A DNA stretch of 61,944 nt from Gemmatimonadota bacterium (GTDB taxonomy: Bacteria > Gemmatimonadota > Gemmatimonadetes > Gemmatimonadales > Gemmatimonadaceae). The number at the start of each line of letters is the position of its first letter. Positions within the stretch are counted from its first letter, which is position 1. The notes under the pieces are model-generated. The model ran no database searches and had not been told where the DNA came from. It was given only the letters and a program-made list of their open reading frames with translations. The stretch is taken from positions 1 to 61,944 of the forward strand of contig JANYKA010000041.1 in the NCBI GenBank assembly GCA_025358315.1, given 5' to 3'. Made by a program: the position numbers and the translations under genes. Below are positions 21,679 to 58,619 of the stretch, piece by piece.

Positions 21679-21681
21679 TTG

Positions 21682-21735
21682 ATCCGTGTTTATCCGAGTG
21701 AAATCCGTGCAAATCCGTGGCCCAGCCGTTTTTTC
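21682..21735 (+). repeat. phased ATCCGTG heptamer element, copy A (half element)
   Basis: Four ATCCGTG-like heptamers start at 21682, 21692, 21703 and 21713, spaced 10-11 nt apart, and end in GGCCCAGCCGTTTTTT. The core 21702-21732 is 30/31 identical to 51291-51321. Confidence 0.8.
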
Positions 21736-21784
21736 TCTACTCTCCACGCTAGCGAATTCCCATTGGGGTGCGTATTGTAACCAG

Positions 21785-35613: not shown

Positions 35614-37431
35614 TCAGGCTGGGGTGATCGCCACCCCAAACTCACCCGCTTGAAGGCGATACAGCCGGGCATAGAGTCCACCGGCCGCCAAGAGCGCCTT
35701 GTGCGTGCCCCGCTCACGGATTTCGCCGTGGTGCATCACCAGAATCTCGTCCGCGGCGACAATCGTGCTCAACCGGTGAGCCACGGCGACCGTCGTCCGG
35801 CCGGCCATCAATTCCGTCAGCGCCAGCTGGATTTCGGCCTCGATTTCGCTGTCCACGGCACTTGTGGCCTCGTCCAGGAGCAGCAATGCGGGGTCGGAAG
35901 CGATCGCCCGGGCGAAGGAGAGCAGTTGCCGCTCGCCGACACTAAGGCTTGCCCCGCGCTCCCCCAGCCGGTGCTGATAGCCGTCCGGAAGTCGTCGTAC
36001 GATCCGGTCGACCCCAACCCGTGCCGCCGCCGTAGCGACCTCGGTGTCAGAGAGCGGGTTGGACAGCCGGATGTTCGTCGCGATATCGCCGGCGAAGAGA
36101 AAAATGTCTTGCTGTACGTATCCAATCTGGGCGCGCAATTCATCGAGTGGCAGACTACGAATGTCGCGGCCGTCAATCAGAATCCGCCCGCGCTGCGGAT
36201 CATAGAACCGGAGTAGCAGACTGATAACGGTGGTCTTGCCGGCGCCAGTATGACCGACGAGCGCCACCGTTTGGCCCGGATGCGCCGTAAAACTCACCCC
36301 TTTGAGCACCCACTGCGGATCCGTCACCTCGCCGCGTCCGTAGCTGAACCAAACGTCTTCGAAGGTCACGGTAACGCCGGCGTGGCCAGCACGAACATAG
36401 GGCGCGGCGGTCATTTCCGGTGCCGCCGGATCGGCCGGTGTGTCGAGTAACGCGAACACCCGCTCCGACGCCGTCATCGCCTGCTGCAGCGTGTTGTACT
36501 TATCGGAAAGGTCTTGCAACGGCTGAAAAAAACGCCGGGCCAACTGCAGAAATGCGGCGACCGTGCCCACGGTGAGCGCATGCGACGCGACGCGCGGCAC
36601 GGCGGCGACAATCAAGCTGGCGAGCGCGATGGTCGTCAGAATCTCGATCGCCGGGAAATACAGCGCATAGACAGTGACGGATTTTAAATGCGCATCGAGG
36701 TGCGACTGATTGAGCTTGGCGAATCGCTGACTCTCGCCCGTCTCCCGTCCAAATAGCTGCACAATCCGCATGCCCGTCAGCCGCTCCTGCAGAAAAGCGT
36801 TGATGCGGGCAATGCGAGTGCGGATGTCACGATAGCTGTCACGGACTTTGAGGCGAAAAACCATCGAAGCGAGAAAAATCAGCGGCACGACGGCGAATGC
36901 CGCCAGCGTGAGCCGCCAGTCGATGGACACCATCAGCACGGAGATCGCGGCAAGCGTGAACAAATCGCCGAATCCGGCGACGACACCGGAGGTGAACAAT
37001 TCGTTGAGCGCTTCGACATCCGACGTCACGCGAGTCACGAGACGGCCAACCGGATTGCGGTCGAAAAACGGCACGGGAAGCCGCTGCAGATGCCCGAAGA
37101 TCTGGCGCCGCAAATCGTGCATCACCCGCTGGCCAAGTAGGCTGGTAAGAAATACTTGCGCATATTCGCCGGCGAATTGAGCAAATAGCAGTGCCACAAA
37201 GAGCAGCGCATCGCGCCGCAGGGCCGCCGCGTCACCGGCCGGAATGGCCACGTCTATGACGTTGCGGGTGAGCAGCGGTTGTACCAGCTGCAGCAAGCCG
37301 TCGACAATGAGCAGCGCCAGCGCTGCGGCGACAATCGTGCCATAGGGACGGACGTAAGCGAGCAACCGGCGCGCCAGACGGTCGTCGAAAGCTTTGCCGA
37401 GGATTTCGTCGTCGATAGGTGGAGCGGGCAT
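35614..37431 (-). CDS. ABC exporter, fused permease/ATPase (MsbA / multidrug type)
   Basis: 605-aa ORF with a six-TM N-terminal half. It carries Walker A (GHTGAGKTT), signature (LSVGERQLLSFARA) and Walker B (LLLDEATSAVD). Confidence 0.9.
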   Translation of the reverse strand: MPAPPIDDEILGKAFDDRLARRLLAYVRPYGTIVAAALALLIVDGLLQLVQPLLTRNVIDVAIPAGDAAALRRDALLFVALLFAQFAGEYAQVFLTSLLGQRVMHDLRRQIFGHLQRLPVPFFDRNPVGRLVTRVTSDVEALNELFTSGVVAGFGDLFTLAAISVLMVSIDWRLTLAAFAVVPLIFLASMVFRLKVRDSYRDIRTRIARINAFLQERLTGMRIVQLFGRETGESQRFAKLNQSHLDAHLKSVTVYALYFPAIEILTTIALASLIVAAVPRVASHALTVGTVAAFLQLARRFFQPLQDLSDKYNTLQQAMTASERVFALLDTPADPAAPEMTAAPYVRAGHAGVTVTFEDVWFSYGRGEVTDPQWVLKGVSFTAHPGQTVALVGHTGAGKTTVISLLLRFYDPQRGRILIDGRDIRSLPLDELRAQIGYVQQDIFLFAGDIATNIRLSNPLSDTEVATAAARVGVDRIVRRLPDGYQHRLGERGASLSVGERQLLSFARAIASDPALLLLDEATSAVDSEIEAEIQLALTELMAGRTTVAVAHRLSTIVAADEILVMHHGEIRERGTHKALLAAGGLYARLYRLQAGEFGVAITPA

Positions 37432-37442
37432 TGACTAAAAGT

Positions 37443-37706
37443 TAGTGCGAGTGCTGAGTGGGAGTATGAGTGCTGAGTGCGAGACTGGTGGGAGAGAGGA
37501 GTGGGAGAGGAGTGCGAGAAGAAGAGTGGGAGGGCACTGCTGTTTCTCCACCCCTCTCCCACTCAGTTTCTCCCACCTCTCTCCCACCCAGTTTCTCCCA
37601 CGCATCTCCCACGCATCTCCCACCCAGTTTCTCCCACGCATCTCCCACGCCTCTCTCCCACCAGTCTCGCACTCAGCACTCATACTCCCACTCAGCACTC
37701 GCACTA
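37443..37706. repeat. large inverted repeat (57-bp perfect arms) with an internal phased TCTCCCAC array
   Basis: 37443-37499 is the exact reverse complement of 37650-37706. Nine TCTCCCAC copies lie on the plus strand between 37555 and 37661, spaced 11-14 nt apart. GTGGGAGA copies lie on the left side. Confidence 0.95.
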
Positions 37707-37716
37707 GTTTTGAGTA

Positions 37717-40590
37717 GTGAAGGATCGCATAATCATCCGCGGCGCCCGCCAACACAATCTCAAGAACATCGACGTTGATATCCCGCGCCGGGCGATCACT
37801 GTTGTGACCGGTCCGTCGGGCTCCGGAAAATCATCGTTAGCATTCGATACGATCTACGCCGAAGGGCAGCGCCGCTACGTCGAATCGCTCTCGGCGTATG
37901 CGCGCCAGTTTCTCGAGCGGATGAAAAAACCCGACGTCGATTTTATCGACGGACTGTCGCCAGCCGTTGCGATCGAGCAGAAGAATCCGACGCGTACATC
38001 GCGTTCCACGGTCGGGACCGCCACCGAGATCTACGACTATCTCCGCCTGCTCTGGGCCCGCGTCGGACACACCATCTGCCCAGTCTGCGGACGCGAACTC
38101 AAGCCCGATACAGCGCAATCGGCCGCCGACGTAGTGCTGGCGCTGCCAGCTGGCACGCGCGTGATGATTGCCTTCCCTCTCCGGCTTTCGTCGAAAGTCA
38201 CGCACAAGCAGGCGGTAGAGAATCTGAAGGCAAAAGCGTTCGTCCGCGTCGTCGCCGATGGCGTAACGCTGCATTTGGATGAGCTCCCACCAAAAACAAA
38301 TCTCGCCAAGGCCAAAGAACTGTTGGTCGTGATCGATCGCCTGTCGGCCGCAGCAGAAAATCAGGCCAGGATCACCGATGCATTCGAGATTGCCTTCACG
38401 GAAGGCGACGGTGATGCGATCGCGCTGCTCGCCGACAGTTCGACGCGCCACAATTTCACGACGCGATTCCAGTGCCCGAACGACGGGCATCAGGCCCCGG
38501 CGCCGTCACCACAACTGTTCAGTTTCAATAGTCCGACCGGCGCCTGCCCCACCTGCAATGGCTTCGGCGCCACATTGGAGTACGATGTCGCACTGATGGT
38601 GCCCTACCCCGACCGTACGCTGAAAGACGGCGCCATCGAAGTCTGGAATGCTCCGCGCTACGACAACAAACGCCGCGCCCTCGCCGAATTCGCAAAGAAA
38701 GAGGGCATCCCTACCGACATCGCATGGCACCGTCTATCGGCGGAGCAGCACAACAAACTGCTCCACGGGAAATCGAAAGAAACGAAAGGGAAAAAAGAAT
38801 TCGTTGGCGCCTTCGATCATCTCAAAGCGCTCGAGCCGAAAAAATACAAGCAGTACATTCGCATTTACCTGCGGCAATTCCAGACAGCCCAGAGCTGCCC
38901 CACCTGCCACGGCGCCAAGCTCCAGGCCGACGCGCTCAATGTGAAGATCGGCGGCAAGACCATCGCCGATGTCGCGGCGATGCCGATCGACCTGCTCAGC
39001 GGATGGGCCGACTCACTTACCCTGTCGCCATCCGAAACACAGATCGCCGCGCACATTCTGCGCGAGGCGCGCAATCGCATCCGTTTTCTGTGCGACGTCG
39101 GGCTCACCTATCTCACACTCGATCGCGCTACCCGCACGCTCTCCGGCGGCGAAGCACAACGCATTGGTCTCTCCAATTCACTCGGGTCACAACTCGTCGA
39201 TACGACCTACGTCCTCGACGAGCCTAGCATCGGACTTCATCCCCGCGACGTCGACCGGCTGCTTGGACTTCTCGAGCGTCTGCGAGACGGCGGCAACACG
39301 GTGATTGTCGTGGAGCATGATCTCGAAGCGATACGGCACGCCGACTGGATGATCGAACTCGGGCCTGGCAGCGGCGAGAACGGCGGCGAAGTCGTGTTCT
39401 CCGGCCCCATCGCCAGAGCAGCCGAGAGCCCGCTCACGGGACAGTATCTGACCGGCGCACGGACAATTCCGCTGCCGGAAGCGCGGCGGGCCGTCGGCCC
39501 CCGCTGGCTGACACTGACCGGCGCGCGCGAGCACAATCTGCGTGGCGTAGACATCAAGATTCCGCTCGGCGCACTGACGGTCGTGACCGGAGTCAGCGGG
39601 AGCGGGAAAAGTACGCTGGTACACGATGTGCTCTATCGCGCCCTCGAACAGCGCATCACTGGCGAGCATTCAGCCAAGCAACATCTCGGAGAAAAAGTTG
39701 GGGCGTTCGCCGGGATCACCGGATACGAGTCACTCGAGAACGCGGTGCTCATTGACCAGGAGCCAATCGGCCGGTCGCCGCGCTCCAATCCCGTGACATA
39801 CATCAAAGCGTTCGATGAAATCCGCCGGATATTCGCCGACGTGCCACTTTCACGTGAACGGAAATACACGGCCAGCACATTCAGCTTCAATGTTCCGGGT
39901 GGCCGTTGCGAAAAATGTGAGGGCGCGGGCTATATCGAAATTGAAATGCTGTTCATGGCCGATGTGTACGTGCCATGCGAAGAGTGCCAGGGCGCACGCT
40001 ATAAACCCGCCGTGACCGAGGTGAAATATTTCGGCAAGAGCATTGTCGACGTGCTTGAACTCACTGTCGACCAGGCGATCCGGTTCTTCCCGCACGAAGA
40101 AAAACTTGGCCAGGCGCTCTGGCAGGTACAGCAGGTTGGTCTCGGCTATCTCCGGCTCGGCCAACCCGCGACCACCCTTTCGGGCGGCGAAGCGCAACGG
40201 CTCAAAATTGCCCGTGAACTTGCGCTTTCGGCGAAAAAGAGTGGGCGCAAATTGTACGTACTGGACGAACCGACAACCGGTTTGCATCTCGAAGACATTC
40301 GCAAGCTCGCGACCGTGTTGGACCGGCTCGTTGACGCCGGCCATACCGTGATATTGATCGAACACAATCTCGATGTGATCAAACTTGCCGACTGGGTGAT
40401 CGATCTCGGGCCGGACGGCGGGAGTGCGGGCGGCCGCCTAGTGGCGATCGGGCGGCCCGAAGAAGTCGCGGCGGTCGCAGACTCGCACACCGGCCGCTGG
40501 CTCGCACCGTTGCTCGGGACGGGTGGCATAACCGAGAAGAAACCAAAGACGTCAGACCCCCGACGCGCCCGTACGCGTCTTCTGAAGTAA
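37717..40590 (+). CDS. uvrA: excinuclease ABC subunit A (UvrA)
   Basis: 957-aa ORF with a GTG start. It has two ABC ATPase modules ([33 protein letters not shown] twice) and zinc modules (CPVCG, CPTCNG, CEKCEG...CEEC). Confidence 0.95.
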
Positions 40591-40624
40591 CTCCGACGCG
40601 CGCGTACGCGTCTTCCGAAGTAAC
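40560..40624 (+). repeat. 33-nt-period tandem duplication spanning the uvrA stop codon
   Basis: CCGACGCGCCCGTACGCGTCTTCTGAAGTAAC (40560-40591) is repeated as CCGACGCGCGCGTACGCGTCTTCCGAAGTAAC (40593-40624). Each unit contains a GACGCG...CGCGTC hairpin and a TAA. Confidence 0.85.
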
Positions 40625-44520: not shown

Positions 44521-44940
44521 GCGCGCGGTCGGGCCCGAGGGGTTTGCTTCTGTGCGCGCGGTCGGGCCCGAGGGGTTTGCTTCTGTGCGCGCGGTCGGGC
44601 CCGAGGGTCTCCCTTCGGCTCGCGTCGCCTTACACGCTGCGAGCCTCGCGCTGCGCGCGAGTCTCTTGCTACGGCGAGGGCTCGCCTGCGCGAGACCCTC
44701 GGGCCCGCCCGCCGAGCTTCATGTGACGCCGGCGGGCAAACCGTGCATCGCGCACGGGCCAGTCCAGGTCGGGCGTGCGCATTCGCTCCACAGGGCCCCG
44801 TGGCTGCCGTGTGCCATGGGCCGAGTAGGCCGATGGCATACGGATGCCACTTGCAGGCCCGAAGGAGTGAATGCGCTTGCCGGACCATGCGCTCGATCAT
44901 GCGCTCGATCATGCGCCCGACCGCGCGCCCAACCGCGCGC
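44521..44940. repeat. repeat-dense, hairpin-rich non-coding island
   Basis: A 33-nt unit GCGCGCGGTCGGGCCCGAGGGGTTTGCTTCTGT occurs 2.7 times in tandem (44521-44608). A 16-bp stem pairs 44596-44611 with 44692-44707. A 12-nt unit CATGCGCTCGAT occurs about 3 times (44886-44921). GCCCGACCGCGCGC (44915-44928) is the reverse complement of the start of each 33-nt unit. Confidence 0.9.
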
Positions 44941-45008: not shown

Positions 45009-45623
45009 GTGACCCTCGCCGTGCGAAATCCAATGCCAGCACCCAAGCAATCCGCCGCCGAATTCGAAGCCGAGACGGTGCGATTTTTGCCGGATGTCAT
45101 GCGGTTTGCGCGGTCGCTCACGCGAAACGTGGACGATGCGGACGATCTCGTGCAGGATACCTATCTGCGCGCCTATCGGGCCCGTGACACGTTTCAGTCC
45201 GGCACGAGCACCCGACAGTGGTTGTTCACGATTTGCCGCAATTCCTTTTTACGGACGCGCGATCGGAGCAAATGGGTGACGACCGTCGAAGGCGACGCGA
45301 CGCTGGAAGTGCTGGCGAGTGTGGGGTTGCACACGGATGCGGAAAGTGGCGGCTATGCCGATATTTTCGACCGTGTCGATTTTGGCCCCGCGCTTGAAAA
45401 AGCGATGGCGAAATTGTCCGAGCCTTTTCGCGTCGTGTTTGCATTGGTGGACCTTGGCGATCAGTCGTATGCCGAGGTCGCCGAGTCGTTGAATATTCCT
45501 GTGGGCACTGTGCGGTCGCGGCTCTTTCGTGCGCGGCGGGAGCTGCAATCATCCCTGATCGATTTTGCGCGCGACGCCGGGATTGCCCCTCGAGCGCCTT
45601 CACACAAGGAGAGTACATCATGA
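45009..45623 (+). CDS. ECF-type RNA polymerase sigma-70 family factor
   Basis: 204-aa ORF from the GTG at 45009, with a more likely ATG at 45036. Region 2 reads DDLVQDTYLRAYRARDTF and region 4 reads SYAEVAESLNIPVGTVRSRLFRARREL. Confidence 0.9.
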   Translation: MTLAVRNPMPAPKQSAAEFEAETVRFLPDVMRFARSLTRNVDDADDLVQDTYLRAYRARDTFQSGTSTRQWLFTICRNSFLRTRDRSKWVTTVEGDATLEVLASVGLHTDAESGGYADIFDRVDFGPALEKAMAKLSEPFRVVFALVDLGDQSYAEVAESLNIPVGTVRSRLFRARRELQSSLIDFARDAGIAPRAPSHKESTS

Positions 45624-47826: not shown

Positions 47827-48545
47827 AGTCCGCCATACCACTCGTACCCCCGATCACTCCAATACCCGCCGTTCCGCTCTGGCATAAACGTGATCGTGGT
47901 CAGGTACTTCGTATTCTTATAGCCAAGTTTCACTGGCGAATGCACGCGAGCTGGCGCGCCGTACGCCGGCGTTAACACCTTCCCATCCTTCGCATATACA
48001 ATGAGAGTCTGCGGATGCATCGCGCTCTCCACGTCCCAGCTTTCGTGGTAGTCGTCGTCAAACGATCCAAAGTCCACATACCCGGCCTTCGGATCTGCAT
48101 CCGCCAGCTTCGCCAGGTCGCGCATCGTCACACCTGAAAACTCGGCGACGGCGGTCCACCCCTCAACGCAGTAGTGATTCACCCGTTGCGTGTGGCGATC
48201 GAGTTTCATGAGATCATCCAGTGTCAGCGATAGCGGTTTGCGCACCATCCCGCCGACTTCGAGCCGCCACGCGGCCATGCCCGCCGCGTCCAGCATCGGC
48301 ACCGACTCAGAAACGAAATAGCTTGGAAAATCATCGCCGGATGCCGTGGCGTTTGTCTTGGCGTGATCCATTGACGTATGCCGGAATATCCCGCGCTCCA
48401 GTACTTCATTCTTCCGCTCGGCGTACTTGAGCAAACGGTCCGCTTTGTCCGGGCCCTGTGAATCGCAGGCACCAAACAGCAACGCGGCGACCGACACCGT
48501 GCCGGTGCGCAGAAAATCGCGACGATGAACGTAAGAAGAACTCAT
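47823..48545 (-). CDS. molybdopterin-dependent oxidoreductase (sulfite-oxidase fold), Tat-exported
   Basis: 240-aa ORF with a twin-arginine signal (HRRDFLRTGTVSVAALLFGAC). The motif HYCVEGWTAVAEFSGVTMRDL is typical of the Oxidored_molyb domain. Confidence 0.8.
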   Translation of the reverse strand: MSSSYVHRRDFLRTGTVSVAALLFGACDSQGPDKADRLLKYAERKNEVLERGIFRHTSMDHAKTNATASGDDFPSYFVSESVPMLDAAGMAAWRLEVGGMVRKPLSLTLDDLMKLDRHTQRVNHYCVEGWTAVAEFSGVTMRDLAKLADADPKAGYVDFGSFDDDYHESWDVESAMHPQTLIVYAKDGKVLTPAYGAPARVHSPVKLGYKNTKYLTTITFMPERNGGYWSDRGYEWYGGL

Positions 48546-49468
48546 AGAGGCTCCGTCGGGGGTGTCGGCGCGTCAATACTCGCAGCGACCATCGCGGGTG
48601 CGGACGCATCAACTGGAGCAACGACCACCGCGGCAACGTCGGCAACGTCGGCAACGTCGGCAACGTCGGCTACGTCGGCTACGTCGGCTACGTCGGCTAC
48701 GTCGGCTACGTCGGCTACGTCGGCTACGTCGGCCACCGCCGTTAGCGGTGGCGTCGCACGCTTCGGCCACAGATTAATAAACGGCCGCGCGTTCCGCTCT
48801 TCCGGCGAAAACCGTTCGCTATATCCGCCGGTCGTCATCGAACGAATCGAATACGGATCCACGGCGAACACCATAAACACGTGCCCGACCGACAGCGCGA
48901 CGAGCAATGACATCCCAAGAAAATGCTCATATCGCGCAAACTGATACCCGCCTAGCAGGTTGGTGAGCGGCGACAACGTGACCGGTTTCCAGATGGCGAT
49001 TCCGCTGATCACGATCAGTGCGGCAACCCACGGCAACGCGAAATAGGTGGCCTTTTGCAGCGCATTGTGCTTACCCTGTCGCGGATGATCCCTGCGGACA
49101 AACATGTAGTACTTGACCATCTCAATTGTGTCGCGAACATCACCGTGACGCGGCACCAGGTCGCGCCATTCGCCGTGCAAGTACACGAAGCCGAGATAGA
49201 TCAGTCCGTTGATCACCAGCACCCACATCATGGCGAAATGCCAGTGGCGCGCTCCGCCCAGCCAGCCGCCAAAGGTGAGCACAGCGGGAATCGCCTTTCC
49301 TTCAAATGGATAGCAGCAGAACGTGTTGCCCGGCCGCGCAAAGGCGGGGTGCGCATTGAATATGCGCAGGCCGCTCCCGACCATCACCGTCACCGCGACG
49401 GCGTTCACCCAGTGTGTTAGGCGGACAATCCAATGATGTCGTGGCATTTTTGATTTATCCATTGTCAC
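48542..49468 (-). CDS. cytochrome b-type membrane subunit (PhsC / Ni-Fe hydrogenase cyt b-like) with a repeat-containing C-terminal tail
   Basis: 308-aa ORF. The N-terminal HHWIVRLTHWVNAVAVTVMVGSGLRIF and the conserved His residues in TM helices fit the cyt b561-type family. It forms an ATGA overlap with the downstream Moco subunit. Confidence 0.75.
   Translation of the reverse strand: MTMDKSKMPRHHWIVRLTHWVNAVAVTVMVGSGLRIFNAHPAFARPGNTFCCYPFEGKAIPAVLTFGGWLGGARHWHFAMMWVLVINGLIYLGFVYLHGEWRDLVPRHGDVRDTIEMVKYYMFVRRDHPRQGKHNALQKATYFALPWVAALIVISGIAIWKPVTLSPLTNLLGGYQFARYEHFLGMSLLVALSVGHVFMVFAVDPYSIRSMTTGGYSERFSPEERNARPFINLWPKRATPPLTAVADVADVADVADVADVADVADVADVADVADVADVAAVVVAPVDASAPAMVAASIDAPTPPTEPL
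48632..48730 (-). repeat. in-frame 9-nt tandem repeat (about 11 copies) encoding (DVA)n
   Basis: On the plus strand GGCAACGTC occurs 4 times (48632-48667) and GGCTACGTC 7 times (48668-48730). The two variants are synonymous (GTT versus GTA Val) and give ...VADVADVADV... in the cyt b tail. Confidence 0.95.
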
Positions 49469-51158: not shown

Positions 51159-51321
51159 AAAAACGGCTTTGCCACGAATTTTGCGGATTTGACAAGCGAT
51201 TTTCACGGATAAAGCAACGGACAAGAGGGGAACATAATCGGGATCGTTTTTGCCGTTCCTTAAGAAAAAATCCGTTTCAATCCCTTGTTCAATCCGTGTA
51301 AATCCGTGGCCCAGCCGTTTT
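51159..51321. repeat. foldback (MITE-like) element built from ATCCGTG-type heptamers, copy B
   Basis: The left arm 51159-51210 and the right arm 51270-51321 are imperfect reverse complements, roughly 75-80% by hand alignment. Both arms end in AAAACGGC...GCCGTTTT. The region is AT-rich relative to its flanks and lies between the convergent moaC and mltD-like genes. Confidence 0.75.
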
Positions 51322-58522: not shown

Positions 58523-58564
58523 CCCGCTGCCCGCTGCCCGCTGCCCGCTGCCCGCTGCACGCTG
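58523..58564. repeat. heptanucleotide tract (CCCGCTG)x5 plus one variant
   Basis: Five perfect CCCGCTG units run from 58523 to 58557, followed by CACGCTG. The tract lies 80-120 nt upstream of the response-regulator start and is flanked by direct repeats ATACGCCACCCGC...CCCCGTACG (58486-58516 and 58570-58594). Confidence 0.9.
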
Positions 58565-58619
58565 CCGTTATACGCCACCCGCCCCGTACGCTTCAACAAC
58601 CTCTCGATCCTACCAAGAA

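Follow-up and report, generated by a model that had tools for sequence, protein, structure and literature searches.

A probable resident copy of a dispersed, non-coding foldback repeat family fills the divergent ABC exporter/uvrA spacer of a Gemmatimonadota bacterium

Introduction

The spacer between an ABC exporter gene and the divergently oriented uvrA gene of a Gemmatimonadota bacterium (assembly GCA_025358315.1, contig JANYKA010000041.1; the whole analysed stretch of 61,944 nucleotides is referred to as the window) is filled by one long palindrome, for which several described systems offer points of comparison. In Proteobacteria, the repetitive extragenic palindromic (REP) sequences, the bacterial interspersed mosaic elements (BIMEs) and the hairpin-forming REP pairs (REPINs) are mobilised by the REP-associated tyrosine transposase (RAYT), an IS200/IS605-like TnpA; REP, enterobacterial repetitive intergenic consensus (ERIC) and Correia elements have a role in transcript processing and stability. 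Among the invertible DNA segments (invertons), Mpi acts at the invertible promoters of Bacteroides, and fimS is another representative. Heptamer arrays of unknown function that are positioned by start codons have been documented in Beggiatoaceae (TAACTGA arrays) and in cyanobacteria (PMC4679880), and heptamer repeats are present at the Nostoc recF/recO genes (bioRxiv 10.1101/2022.06.06.494920).

Based on the comparison presented here, the exporter/uvrA spacer is probably a resident copy of a lineage-specific, small, non-coding, dispersed foldback repeat of Gemmatimonadota, of the REP/BIME/REPIN/MITE (miniature inverted-repeat transposable element) kind. The class assignment as a dispersed non-coding foldback repeat family seems secure; its mode of spread and the reason for the retention of its arms are what we infer. 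The family appears to be undescribed: the literature searched contained no interspersed repeat family of Gemmatimonadota and no paper on Gemmatimonadota MITEs, and queries with the motif sequences gave just unrelated primer matches.

Results and Discussion

Anatomy of the palindrome in the exporter/uvrA spacer

From the ATG of the exporter (37431, minus strand) to the GTG of uvrA (37717), the spacer measures 285 nt. The features of the region are (window coordinates, strand, feature, source in brackets):

35614..37431, minus strand: ABC exporter gene with ABC_membrane and ABC_tran domains (list of open reading frames (ORFs), Pfam)
37434..37715, no strand: whole foldback element, an extended imperfect palindrome (repeat search, folding)
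37443..37499, plus strand: left perfect arm, 57 nt (exact reverse complement of 37650-37706)
37488..37532, plus strand: left purine-rich unit array, with GTGGGAGA at 37488 and 37501, GTGCGAGA at 37512 and GTGGGAG at 37526
37533..37554, no strand: asymmetric apex GGCACTGCTGTTTCTCCACCCC with the CTGTTTCTC motif (read from the sequence)
37555..37661, plus strand: right pyrimidine-rich array of nine TCTCCCAC units, spacing 11/13-14 nt (Tandem Repeats Finder (TRF) periods 11, 25, 36)
37650..37706, plus strand: right perfect arm, 57 nt, with the family core at 37654-37700 (reverse complement of the left arm)
37717..40590, plus strand: uvrA with UvrA_inter, UvrA_DNA-bind and ABC_tran domains (ORF list, Pfam)

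The outer inverted repeat (37434-37532 and 37617-37715; arms of 99 nt, 89% complementary) reaches within 1-2 nt of both start codons: the ATG of the exporter, which is the first gene of an exporter-FHA-PP2C operon, lies 2 nt from one palindrome end, and the uvrA GTG starts 1 nt beyond the other. The original prediction, made from the sequence alone, had described the inner part of this symmetry, and its coordinates were reproduced upon re-examination: the 57-nt arms are exact reverse complements (37443-37499 and 37650-37706), pairing resumes for 8 nt past one mismatch (37501-37508 with 37641-37648), TCTCCCAC occurs on the plus strand exactly at 37555, 37569, 37580, 37594, 37605, 37616, 37630, 37641 and 37654, and a 28-nt block is found twice in identical form (37587-37614 and 37623-37650). 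This exact duplicate, together with the higher-order 25- and 36-nt repeats that TRF detected within the right array, indicates recent slippage. Each arm contains a 47-nt family core (left arm: 37449-37495, GAGTGCTGAGTGGGAGTATGAGTGCTGAGTGCGAGACTGGTGGGAGA) that carries two GAGTGCTGAGTG 12-mers at a distance of 19 nt, and the orientation of the CTGTTTCTC motif, found either way round at the apex of other copies, serves as a marker of interior orientation. The claimed phasing of the units by about one helical turn could not be upheld: over 12 family copies the spacings were mostly 11 nt (58 cases) and 13 nt (42 cases) in alternation, resulting in a 24-nt super-unit, so that successive sites do not lie on one face of the helix.

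All 11 TCTCCCAC/GTGGGAGA sites of the 62-kb window are located inside the spacer (1.36 expected; reached in 0 of 100 shuffles), as are all four GAGTGCTGAGTG sites (0.26 expected), and the runner-up inverted repeats of the window are imperfect and 20-34 nt long; a chance origin of the palindrome and the arrays is excluded. Folding of both strands as RNA yielded -180 (plus) and -193 kcal/mol (minus), and the predicted fold energy as DNA was -102 kcal/mol (z approximately -15).

The perfection of the 57-bp arms, and the break of a related contig (L001; L numbers designate the fetched loci) within the element, would also be expected from an assembly or sequencing artefact or from a unique, recent local inverted duplication. 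However, at least 8 independent assemblies from different samples joined the arms to the same flanks, the element is common to lineages that are 87-90% identical, and arms of identical type are present at other loci. Since the independent short-read assemblies of relatives (L108, L109, L110, L113-L116, L241) connect both arms with the same unique flanks, the palindrome is not an assembly artefact, the possibility that the original prediction had raised against itself; L001 (99% identical) also agrees with the left arm at every base as far as this contig extends (window position 37495). The probability that remains for an artefact or a purely local duplication is close to negligible.

A dispersed family with a common plan

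When one representative genome of each species was scanned for pairs of GAGTGCTGAGTG sites separated by 5-8 nt, 106 loci were obtained. In a blastn comparison of the window with these loci, full-length element matches (250-280 bp, 70-78% identity) were all confined to six contigs of one Gemmatimonadetes metagenome-assembled genome (MAG), JANYBD01, which is fragmentary and carries the family at at least 7 loci, one of them upstream of rpsL. The arm core was matched at 47/47 to 44/47 positions in 12 full copies, in addition to solo or truncated arms. The copies range in size from 66 to 441 bp, and the ORFs that cross them are only spurious, repeat-derived ones; in view of the flips and length changes of the interior described below, a coding role is excluded.

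The copies follow a common layered plan. Outermost is an arm of approximately 47-60 nt built of GAGTG(C/G)(T/G) heptamer-like units with two GAGTGCTGAGTG sites each (in the JANYBD01 copies it reads GAGTGCTGAGTGGGAGTANGAGTGCTGAGTGCGAGACTNGTGGGAGA); then follows a second layer with a variable number of GTGGGAGA units (GTGGGAG, spacing 11/13 nt), mirrored by TCTCCCAC (CTCCCAC), and the centre is formed by an asymmetric apex with a GAGAAAC / GTTTCTC motif. In each full copy the arms form an inverted pair; an arm taken alone consists of heptamer-like units in direct order and is not self-complementary. In the long versions L110, L241, L005 and L118, a third layer, GTTTCTCTCTCGCAC(TCGCTCGCAC)n ... 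GAGTGCGAGAGAGAAAC (CTCGCAC units), has the reverse polarity and encloses a core. The sequence of this core is not conserved between loci: that of L110 is unrelated to that of L005, and the approximately 50 nt that L110 and L241 have in common are consistent with orthology only. A solo arm is present at L005:4030-4127; an autonomous element behind it was considered and rejected, as its neighbour is just a HIT-family gene.

The family was encountered only in a few NCBI/ENA assemblies of one lineage. In the JGI (Joint Genome Institute) metagenomes, the arm pattern GAGTGYTGAGTGGGAGTANGAGTG had 0 matches, a scan for three phased GTGGGAG units gave 120 loci of which none had the family arm (unrelated repeats with a 12-nt period), and the family was without match in viral contigs, plasmids and phages.

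Position of the copies and the question of a dedicated operator

As judged by longest-ORF selection plus Pfam, the copies occupy short intergenic gaps between unrelated housekeeping genes, usually 2-12 nt past a stop codon and 0-22 nt ahead of the next start codon or promoter. A stop codon adjoins within 2-12 nt at 6 of the 8 loci other than that of the window. The individual positions are:

L018: upstream, carB stop, codon within the outer arm; downstream, ATG of a hexapeptide transferase gene, gap 3 nt
L027: upstream, M19 dipeptidase stop, touching the arm; downstream, GNAT ATG, gap 0 nt
L038: upstream, relA/spoT stop, gap approximately 10 nt; downstream, start of a small membrane protein gene, 12 nt
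L013: upstream, M28 peptidase stop, gap 5 nt
L009 and L239: upstream, stop of a GPAT-type acyltransferase gene, 2-12 nt; downstream, rpsL promoter, adjacent
L005: downstream, start of a large glycosyltransferase gene, gap 22 nt

The element of L117 likewise adjoins the rpsL promoter, and its other flank is the exporter start. No transposase was detected beside any fetched family copy, and no transposase or recombinase within approximately 15 kb of the element in the window, where the surrounding 30 kb or so encode housekeeping functions. At the GPAT/rpsL locus (L239:4331-4545), the palindrome runs 12 nt past the family arm into the flanks (GGGGGGACTGAAA ... TTTCAGTCCCCC), and a ACTNAAAG motif is also situated outside the arms at the exporter locus, which suggests that arms may grow by copying flank sequence across the palindrome. 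In a lineage of 77% identity (L240:4447-4874), the GPAT gene is followed by a 430-nt spacer that is full of CGCGGGTCTCGG-type repeats and devoid of the element; this lineage possesses a classical rpoC terminator.

The distribution of the copies bears directly on the symmetric operator that the original prediction had considered for uvrA and/or the exporter. According to that proposal, an SOS- or stress-type regulator acting on the TCTCCCAC/GTGGGAGA units would control uvrA and/or the exporter-FHA-PP2C operon, in line with the roughly helical spacing of an 8-mer whose eleven copies are all confined to the region of divergent promoters. The same arrays, however, are located beside unrelated genes (rpsL, carB/hexapeptide transferase, relA/spoT, M19 peptidase/GNAT), both genes persist in the P0007 lineage (L113-L116) although its TCTCCCAC array is gone entirely, and the number of units and even the strand of the array differ between near-identical strains. 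Together with the 11/13-nt alternation, the family distribution and the deletion allele contradict a locus-specific operator, which we regard as very improbable.

Age of the element and conservation of its arms

Relatives of the locus were recovered by exact-protein look-ups of exporter homologues, of which the named ones come from MAGs of Gemmatimonadaceae/Gemmatimonadota (orthologues P0002-P0011: 94-96% amino-acid identity); the same look-up with the UvrA protein of the window gave no record. The exporter-element-uvrA arrangement was present in at least 5 related Gemmatimonadota lineages of 87-99% nucleotide identity:

L001: 99% identical to the window; contig end inside the left arm
L118: 90% identical; contig stops within the element, short of the uvrA side
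L108, L109, L110, L113-L116: 87-88% identical; element between the same two genes
L241, L242: exporters 94-95% amino-acid identical; element between the same two genes

Every collinear relative was filled; the sole lineage that has no element (L111/L112, 79% amino-acid identity) is not collinear, other genes separating the exporter from uvrA. Because the element is common to lineages of 87-90% identity, it is older than the split of several lineages at species level. When the initial 900 nt of each of the two flanking genes were compared, the relatives were 86-90% identical, with third codon positions at 65-74%, whereas the two 47-nt arm cores differed from those of the window at 2 (L110) to 4 (L108, L109) of 94 positions. 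Judged by these alignments, the arms evolve approximately ten times more slowly than synonymous sites. Among the 24 arms of 12 copies, 36 of the 47 core positions were invariant, and 31 of the 38 variant cells fell on positions 6, 19, 30 and 39 (two of these tri-allelic). Changes that are so few and so clustered argue for a position-specific constraint and not for mere youth. The choice between recent origin and active maintenance that had been left by the original prediction is thus decided in favour of maintenance: the element is old and its arms are 96-98% identical, compared with 65-74% at third codon positions.

Inversion, deletion and slippage of the interior

In the sequences compared, the interior is hypervariable while the arms are nearly constant. 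The 215-nt interval L108:3771-3985 and its L109 counterpart are 100% identical once one of them is reverse-complemented, with flanks that are 99.0-99.5% identical in direct orientation; the arm mismatch at core position 39 has moved with the interior, and the outermost arm differences have stayed in place. The joint movement of this mismatch places the exchange within the perfect stretch of approximately 38 nt in the arms. A second flip is evident at the rpsL locus, where identity between the L239 and L117 interiors amounts to 97% after one of them is reverse-complemented and to 69% when both are aligned as they stand, so that both orientations were found at both loci for which several comparable relatives are available. 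Besides inversion, the number of interior units varies between copies, nested long alleles exist (L110, L241, L005, L118), and a deletion allele (L113-L116) has retained only GAGTGCTGAGTGGGAGTATGAGTGTT-GAGTGC-AACACTCATACTCCCACTCAGCACTC, a 66-nt mini-hairpin in an 89-nt spacer, in which a C>T change is matched by G>A on the opposite arm. The inversion between close relatives, the deletion and the nested variants go beyond anything that the original prediction had led one to expect.

A further rearrangement is contained in L117 (GCA_043740755.1, JAYUBS010000717.1, 1-445), where the exporter start is joined to the rpsL promoter and gene via a single element, one arm of which has the variants characteristic of the exporter locus and the other those of the rpsL locus. 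Either the chromosome was rearranged when copies at different loci recombined, or the contig is chimeric; if the junction is genuine, the clade of the window contains at least 2 loci of the family.

Invertible interiors raise the question of a multi-locus inverton family, in which the arms would be the sites of a dedicated recombinase that flips the interior and thereby alters the expression of flanking genes. Such a system would be in accord with the same inverted-repeat arms at many loci by gene starts, with both interior orientations at two loci (in one case with 99%-identical flanks), with breakpoints within the arms and with a position-by-position arm conservation as for a protein-binding site. 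Flipping would alter little, however, since the interior is nearly palindromic, and the 57 nt nearest to each gene are identical in both states. A consensus scan found no sigma-70-like promoter in the window, L108, L110 and L241 versions of the element, in either orientation; as positive control, the same scan detected the rpsL promoter of the same lineage (TTGACC-17-TATAAT), which lies outside the element. Moreover, homologous recombination or template switching between inverted repeats of 38-57 bp suffices for the observed flips, the deletion allele shows that the interior is dispensable, and the window contains no recombinase gene within approximately 15 kb (a distant master recombinase would still be possible). 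Altogether, an inverton family is an unlikely explanation.

Transcription signals and a possible role of the RNA

The original prediction had placed the promoters of both exporter and uvrA inside the repeat. From the present analysis this is plausible. No sigma-70-like promoter was detectable in any version of the element, and outside the arms, within 37200-37900, the consensus scan did not recover one either. An intrinsic terminator was not scored in any version of the element, with just TTTT after each arm in the window, and Rfam 15 gave no match at the gathering threshold for the window or 10 related loci (at permissive E-value, just generic hairpin matches resembling miRNA precursors, far below threshold). 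Of the 42 gene starts that were crudely called in the window, 8 had a Shine-Dalgarno-like motif within 20 nt upstream, a proportion which suggests that translation initiation is largely independent of such motifs in this organism. Their rare use probably allows the arms to adjoin start codons without harm.

Since the majority of copies follow a stop codon at 2-12 nt within pairs of genes read in the same direction, their transcription is very probable, and an RNA role is likely at the copies so placed. This leads to the proposal of a selected cis-acting RNA: a transcribed duplex of at least 47 bp that is cut by RNase III or blocks exonucleases and thereby sets the 3' end and the stability of the message upstream as well as the 5' end of the one downstream. 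The extreme predicted duplex stability of both strands and an arm conservation in excess of neutral expectation would agree with such a function. On the other hand, the sequence is conserved rather than the pairing (38 of 53 arm pairs never vary, and at variable pairs 30-40% of the copies are mismatched), the arm mismatches of the sense strand exhibit no bias towards G-U over A-C where the transcript direction is known (approximately 5 wobble, 9 disruptive), and no Rfam family was matched. At the exporter/uvrA locus, where the original prediction had considered a dsRNA hairpin in one or both leaders as a substrate of RNase III, both genes diverge from the element, with the result that no ordinary mRNA includes both arms unless the promoters are positioned beyond them; there the RNA would have to act by processing long leaders that start beyond the arms, where the promoter scan was negative. 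As a general explanation of the family, and equally in this leader-processing form, a selected RNA is possible but rather unlikely.

Proposed origin and maintenance of the element

The arms of the dispersed foldback repeat favoured here would be retained because a trans-acting protein recognises their sequence; candidates are a host factor, a recombinase and an enzyme of the transposase or RAYT type. Protein recognition would agree with the presence of two 12-mer sites in each arm and with a conservation that is specific to position. Gene conversion between copies probably adds to the homogeneity of the arms. The interior would evolve via replication slippage of the 11/13-nt units, and inversions and deletions may arise when the two arms recombine with each other or when template switching takes place between them. 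At the uvrA locus the element would be a tolerated passenger and not a dedicated uvrA regulator, and both promoters probably overlap the outer arm ends or the flanks.

Of the foldback (MITE-type) insertion that had been put forward as one candidate in the original prediction, the multi-copy, dispersed, small, non-coding foldback family has been substantiated and the insertion has not: transposition is unproven because neither a target-site duplication nor an empty site nor a transposase was found and the relatives carry the element syntenically. Several observations weigh against the explanation given above. The flanks of 12 copies have no common direct repeat that would represent a target-site duplication (the outer 6-15 nt of the copies are degenerate, and the TA at some ends is itself palindromic and therefore ambiguous), and neither an empty orthologous site nor an autonomous partner was found among the fetched loci. 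The 62-kb window holds one family copy only, and the family was seen only in few NCBI/ENA assemblies of one lineage and not in JGI contigs. The inversions are derived from comparison between assemblies, not from reads or from one population. In addition, there is weak covariation of the arms (92.5% of the cells are paired compared with 90.8% in shuffles; 7 of 500 shuffles were as good), which lends no support to selection for pairing itself, and in L242 the exporter-side arm is remodelled and degenerate, so that the constraint is not absolute. Finally, arm conservation at a fixed orthologous site is unlike the behaviour of a decaying selfish insertion and may instead reflect a host-level function.

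Heptamer arrays in other phyla and a host-integrated alternative

Arrays of the GAGTGCT heptamer also occur in the intergenic DNA of Planctomycetaceae (OY970189.1), Thermoanaerobaculia, Blastocatellia, Vicinamibacterales, Chloroflexia and many cyanobacteria, including Nostocales and Desertifilum (L002-L107), and adjoin stop and start codons in cyanobacteria, Planctomycetaceae, Acidobacteriota and Chloroflexia. Where both orientations were present within 800 nt, the purine-rich array came first at 26 loci; the reverse order was seen at one locus only, which also shows the usual one. Solo arrays past a stop codon had the purine-rich sense in 31 versus 8 cases (crude ORF calls), and this sense contains TGA in every frame.

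Against this background, a host-integrated family is conceivable whose arms are the sites of a dedicated protein, i.e. either a flip system in which a recombinase acts at many loci or a domesticated REPIN-like replicator that shapes the 5' and 3' message ends of an organism with little use of Shine-Dalgarno sites. We consider this rather unlikely; if true, the family would be a local, elaborated form of cross-phylum, polarised heptamer-array hairpins that are placed after stop codons with the purine-rich arm first.

Other repeats of the window and implications

The window contains further repeats, listed by position (the first is dispersed and common to the JANYBD01 MAG):

21681-21736 and 51270-51321, also L038:3803-3859: second dispersed repeat, 3-4 (A/G)ATCCGTG units at approximately 11-nt spacing, then GCCCAGCCGTTTT
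40560-40624: 33-nt unit tandemly doubled over the uvrA stop codon, with a GACGCG...CGCGTC hairpin in each unit
44521-44607: perfect 33-nt x2.6 tandem repeat in or beside an ORF that has no Pfam match, just upstream of an ECF (extracytoplasmic function) sigma factor gene (45009-45623); its last unit pairs with a 21-nt inverted copy at 44692-44712, 80 nt downstream
48631-48733: 9-nt x11 tandem repeat in a cytochrome b561-like ORF (48542-49468, minus strand), where it codes for (DVA)n close to the C-terminus
58523-58566: (CCCGCTG)x6 heptamer array in a 176-nt gap between two minus-strand genes, by which simple heptamer arrays are also present in this genome

For the foldback family, the consequences are practical as well as general. 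Most contigs of the exporter/uvrA locus are just 2-4 kb long, and contig ends internal to the element were found in L001, L118, L242 and, at another locus, L013: the repeats interrupt the assembly of MAGs from short reads and may have given rise to one chimeric contig. In annotation, the uvrA upstream region is to be treated here as a generic repeat and not as an SOS operator. The family also provides a usable model for the maintenance of palindromes and their destabilisation of bacterial intergenic DNA, a natural case in which long inverted arms stay near-constant across species and the tandem arrays enclosed by them slip, delete and invert. Should a cognate protein exist, the search for it could use the 47-nt arm as a ready bait.

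Comparison with known repeat systems

Among the known systems, REP/BIME/REPIN elements agree with the Gemmatimonadota family in being short, non-coding, extragenic and multi-copy, typically located just after stop codons; both consist of inverted pairs with long hairpins, are mosaic with a variable number of sub-units, produce no target-site duplication and are conserved in sequence within a lineage. A REP unit, in contrast, is an imperfect palindrome of 20-40 nt with a GT(A/G)G (GTAG) head, whereas the Gemmatimonadota arm is 47-60 nt long and composed of heptamer-like units in direct order, and the tandem array of the interior undergoes expansion and flipping; furthermore, the copy number is given only by a lower bound of 7 loci, counted in one fragmentary MAG. 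As its arm is not a REP-type palindrome, the family is REP/BIME-like in behaviour and not a member of that family.

Bacterial MITEs, e.g. Correia/NEMIS of Neisseria and Nezha of cyanobacteria, are similarly small (66-441 bp in the present case) and non-coding, have long terminal inverted repeats, are dispersed in intergenic DNA by gene starts and may be co-transcribed as hairpins. They differ in their target-site duplication (TA in Correia), of which the Gemmatimonadota element has none; no cognate insertion sequence was found near the fetched copies and no presence/absence polymorphism was seen in the relatives, the arms are much longer and internally repetitive, and the orthologous copy is conserved and not decaying. 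The missing target-site duplication and autonomous partner place the family outside the MITE definition.

The pneumococcal BOX element (boxA-boxB(n)-boxC) is likewise a modular dispersed intergenic repeat with conserved ends and a variable number of internal units; its ends, however, do not form a long perfect inverted repeat, its units measure 45 nt instead of 11/13 nt, and its host belongs to an unrelated phylum. The foldback (FB) elements of Drosophila are a structural analogue only: they have long inverted arms of short tandem repeats whose number varies by copy and by arm, a conserved outer end and a tendency to rearrangement and inversion, but are eukaryotic, of kilobase scale and in part equipped with coding inserts, so that no homology is implied. 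Invertons (Mpi-dependent promoters of Bacteroides, fimS) correspond in the inverted-repeat-bounded segment that exists in both orientations and in the occurrence of the same inverted repeat at several loci by gene starts; in contrast, the Gemmatimonadota interior is quasi-palindromic, has no detectable promoter and no recombinase gene nearby, and its arms are 2-5 times longer than typical inverton repeats. With the heptamer arrays of the cyanobacterial STRR (short tandemly repeated repetitive) type, of Beggiatoaceae and of Nostoc, for which the function is unknown and a post-transcriptional role has been proposed, the family has in common that its arms are built on a GAGTGCT-type heptamer; those arrays are simple tandems of one unit, whereas here the heptamers form a fixed 47-nt composite that is set into a layered palindrome.

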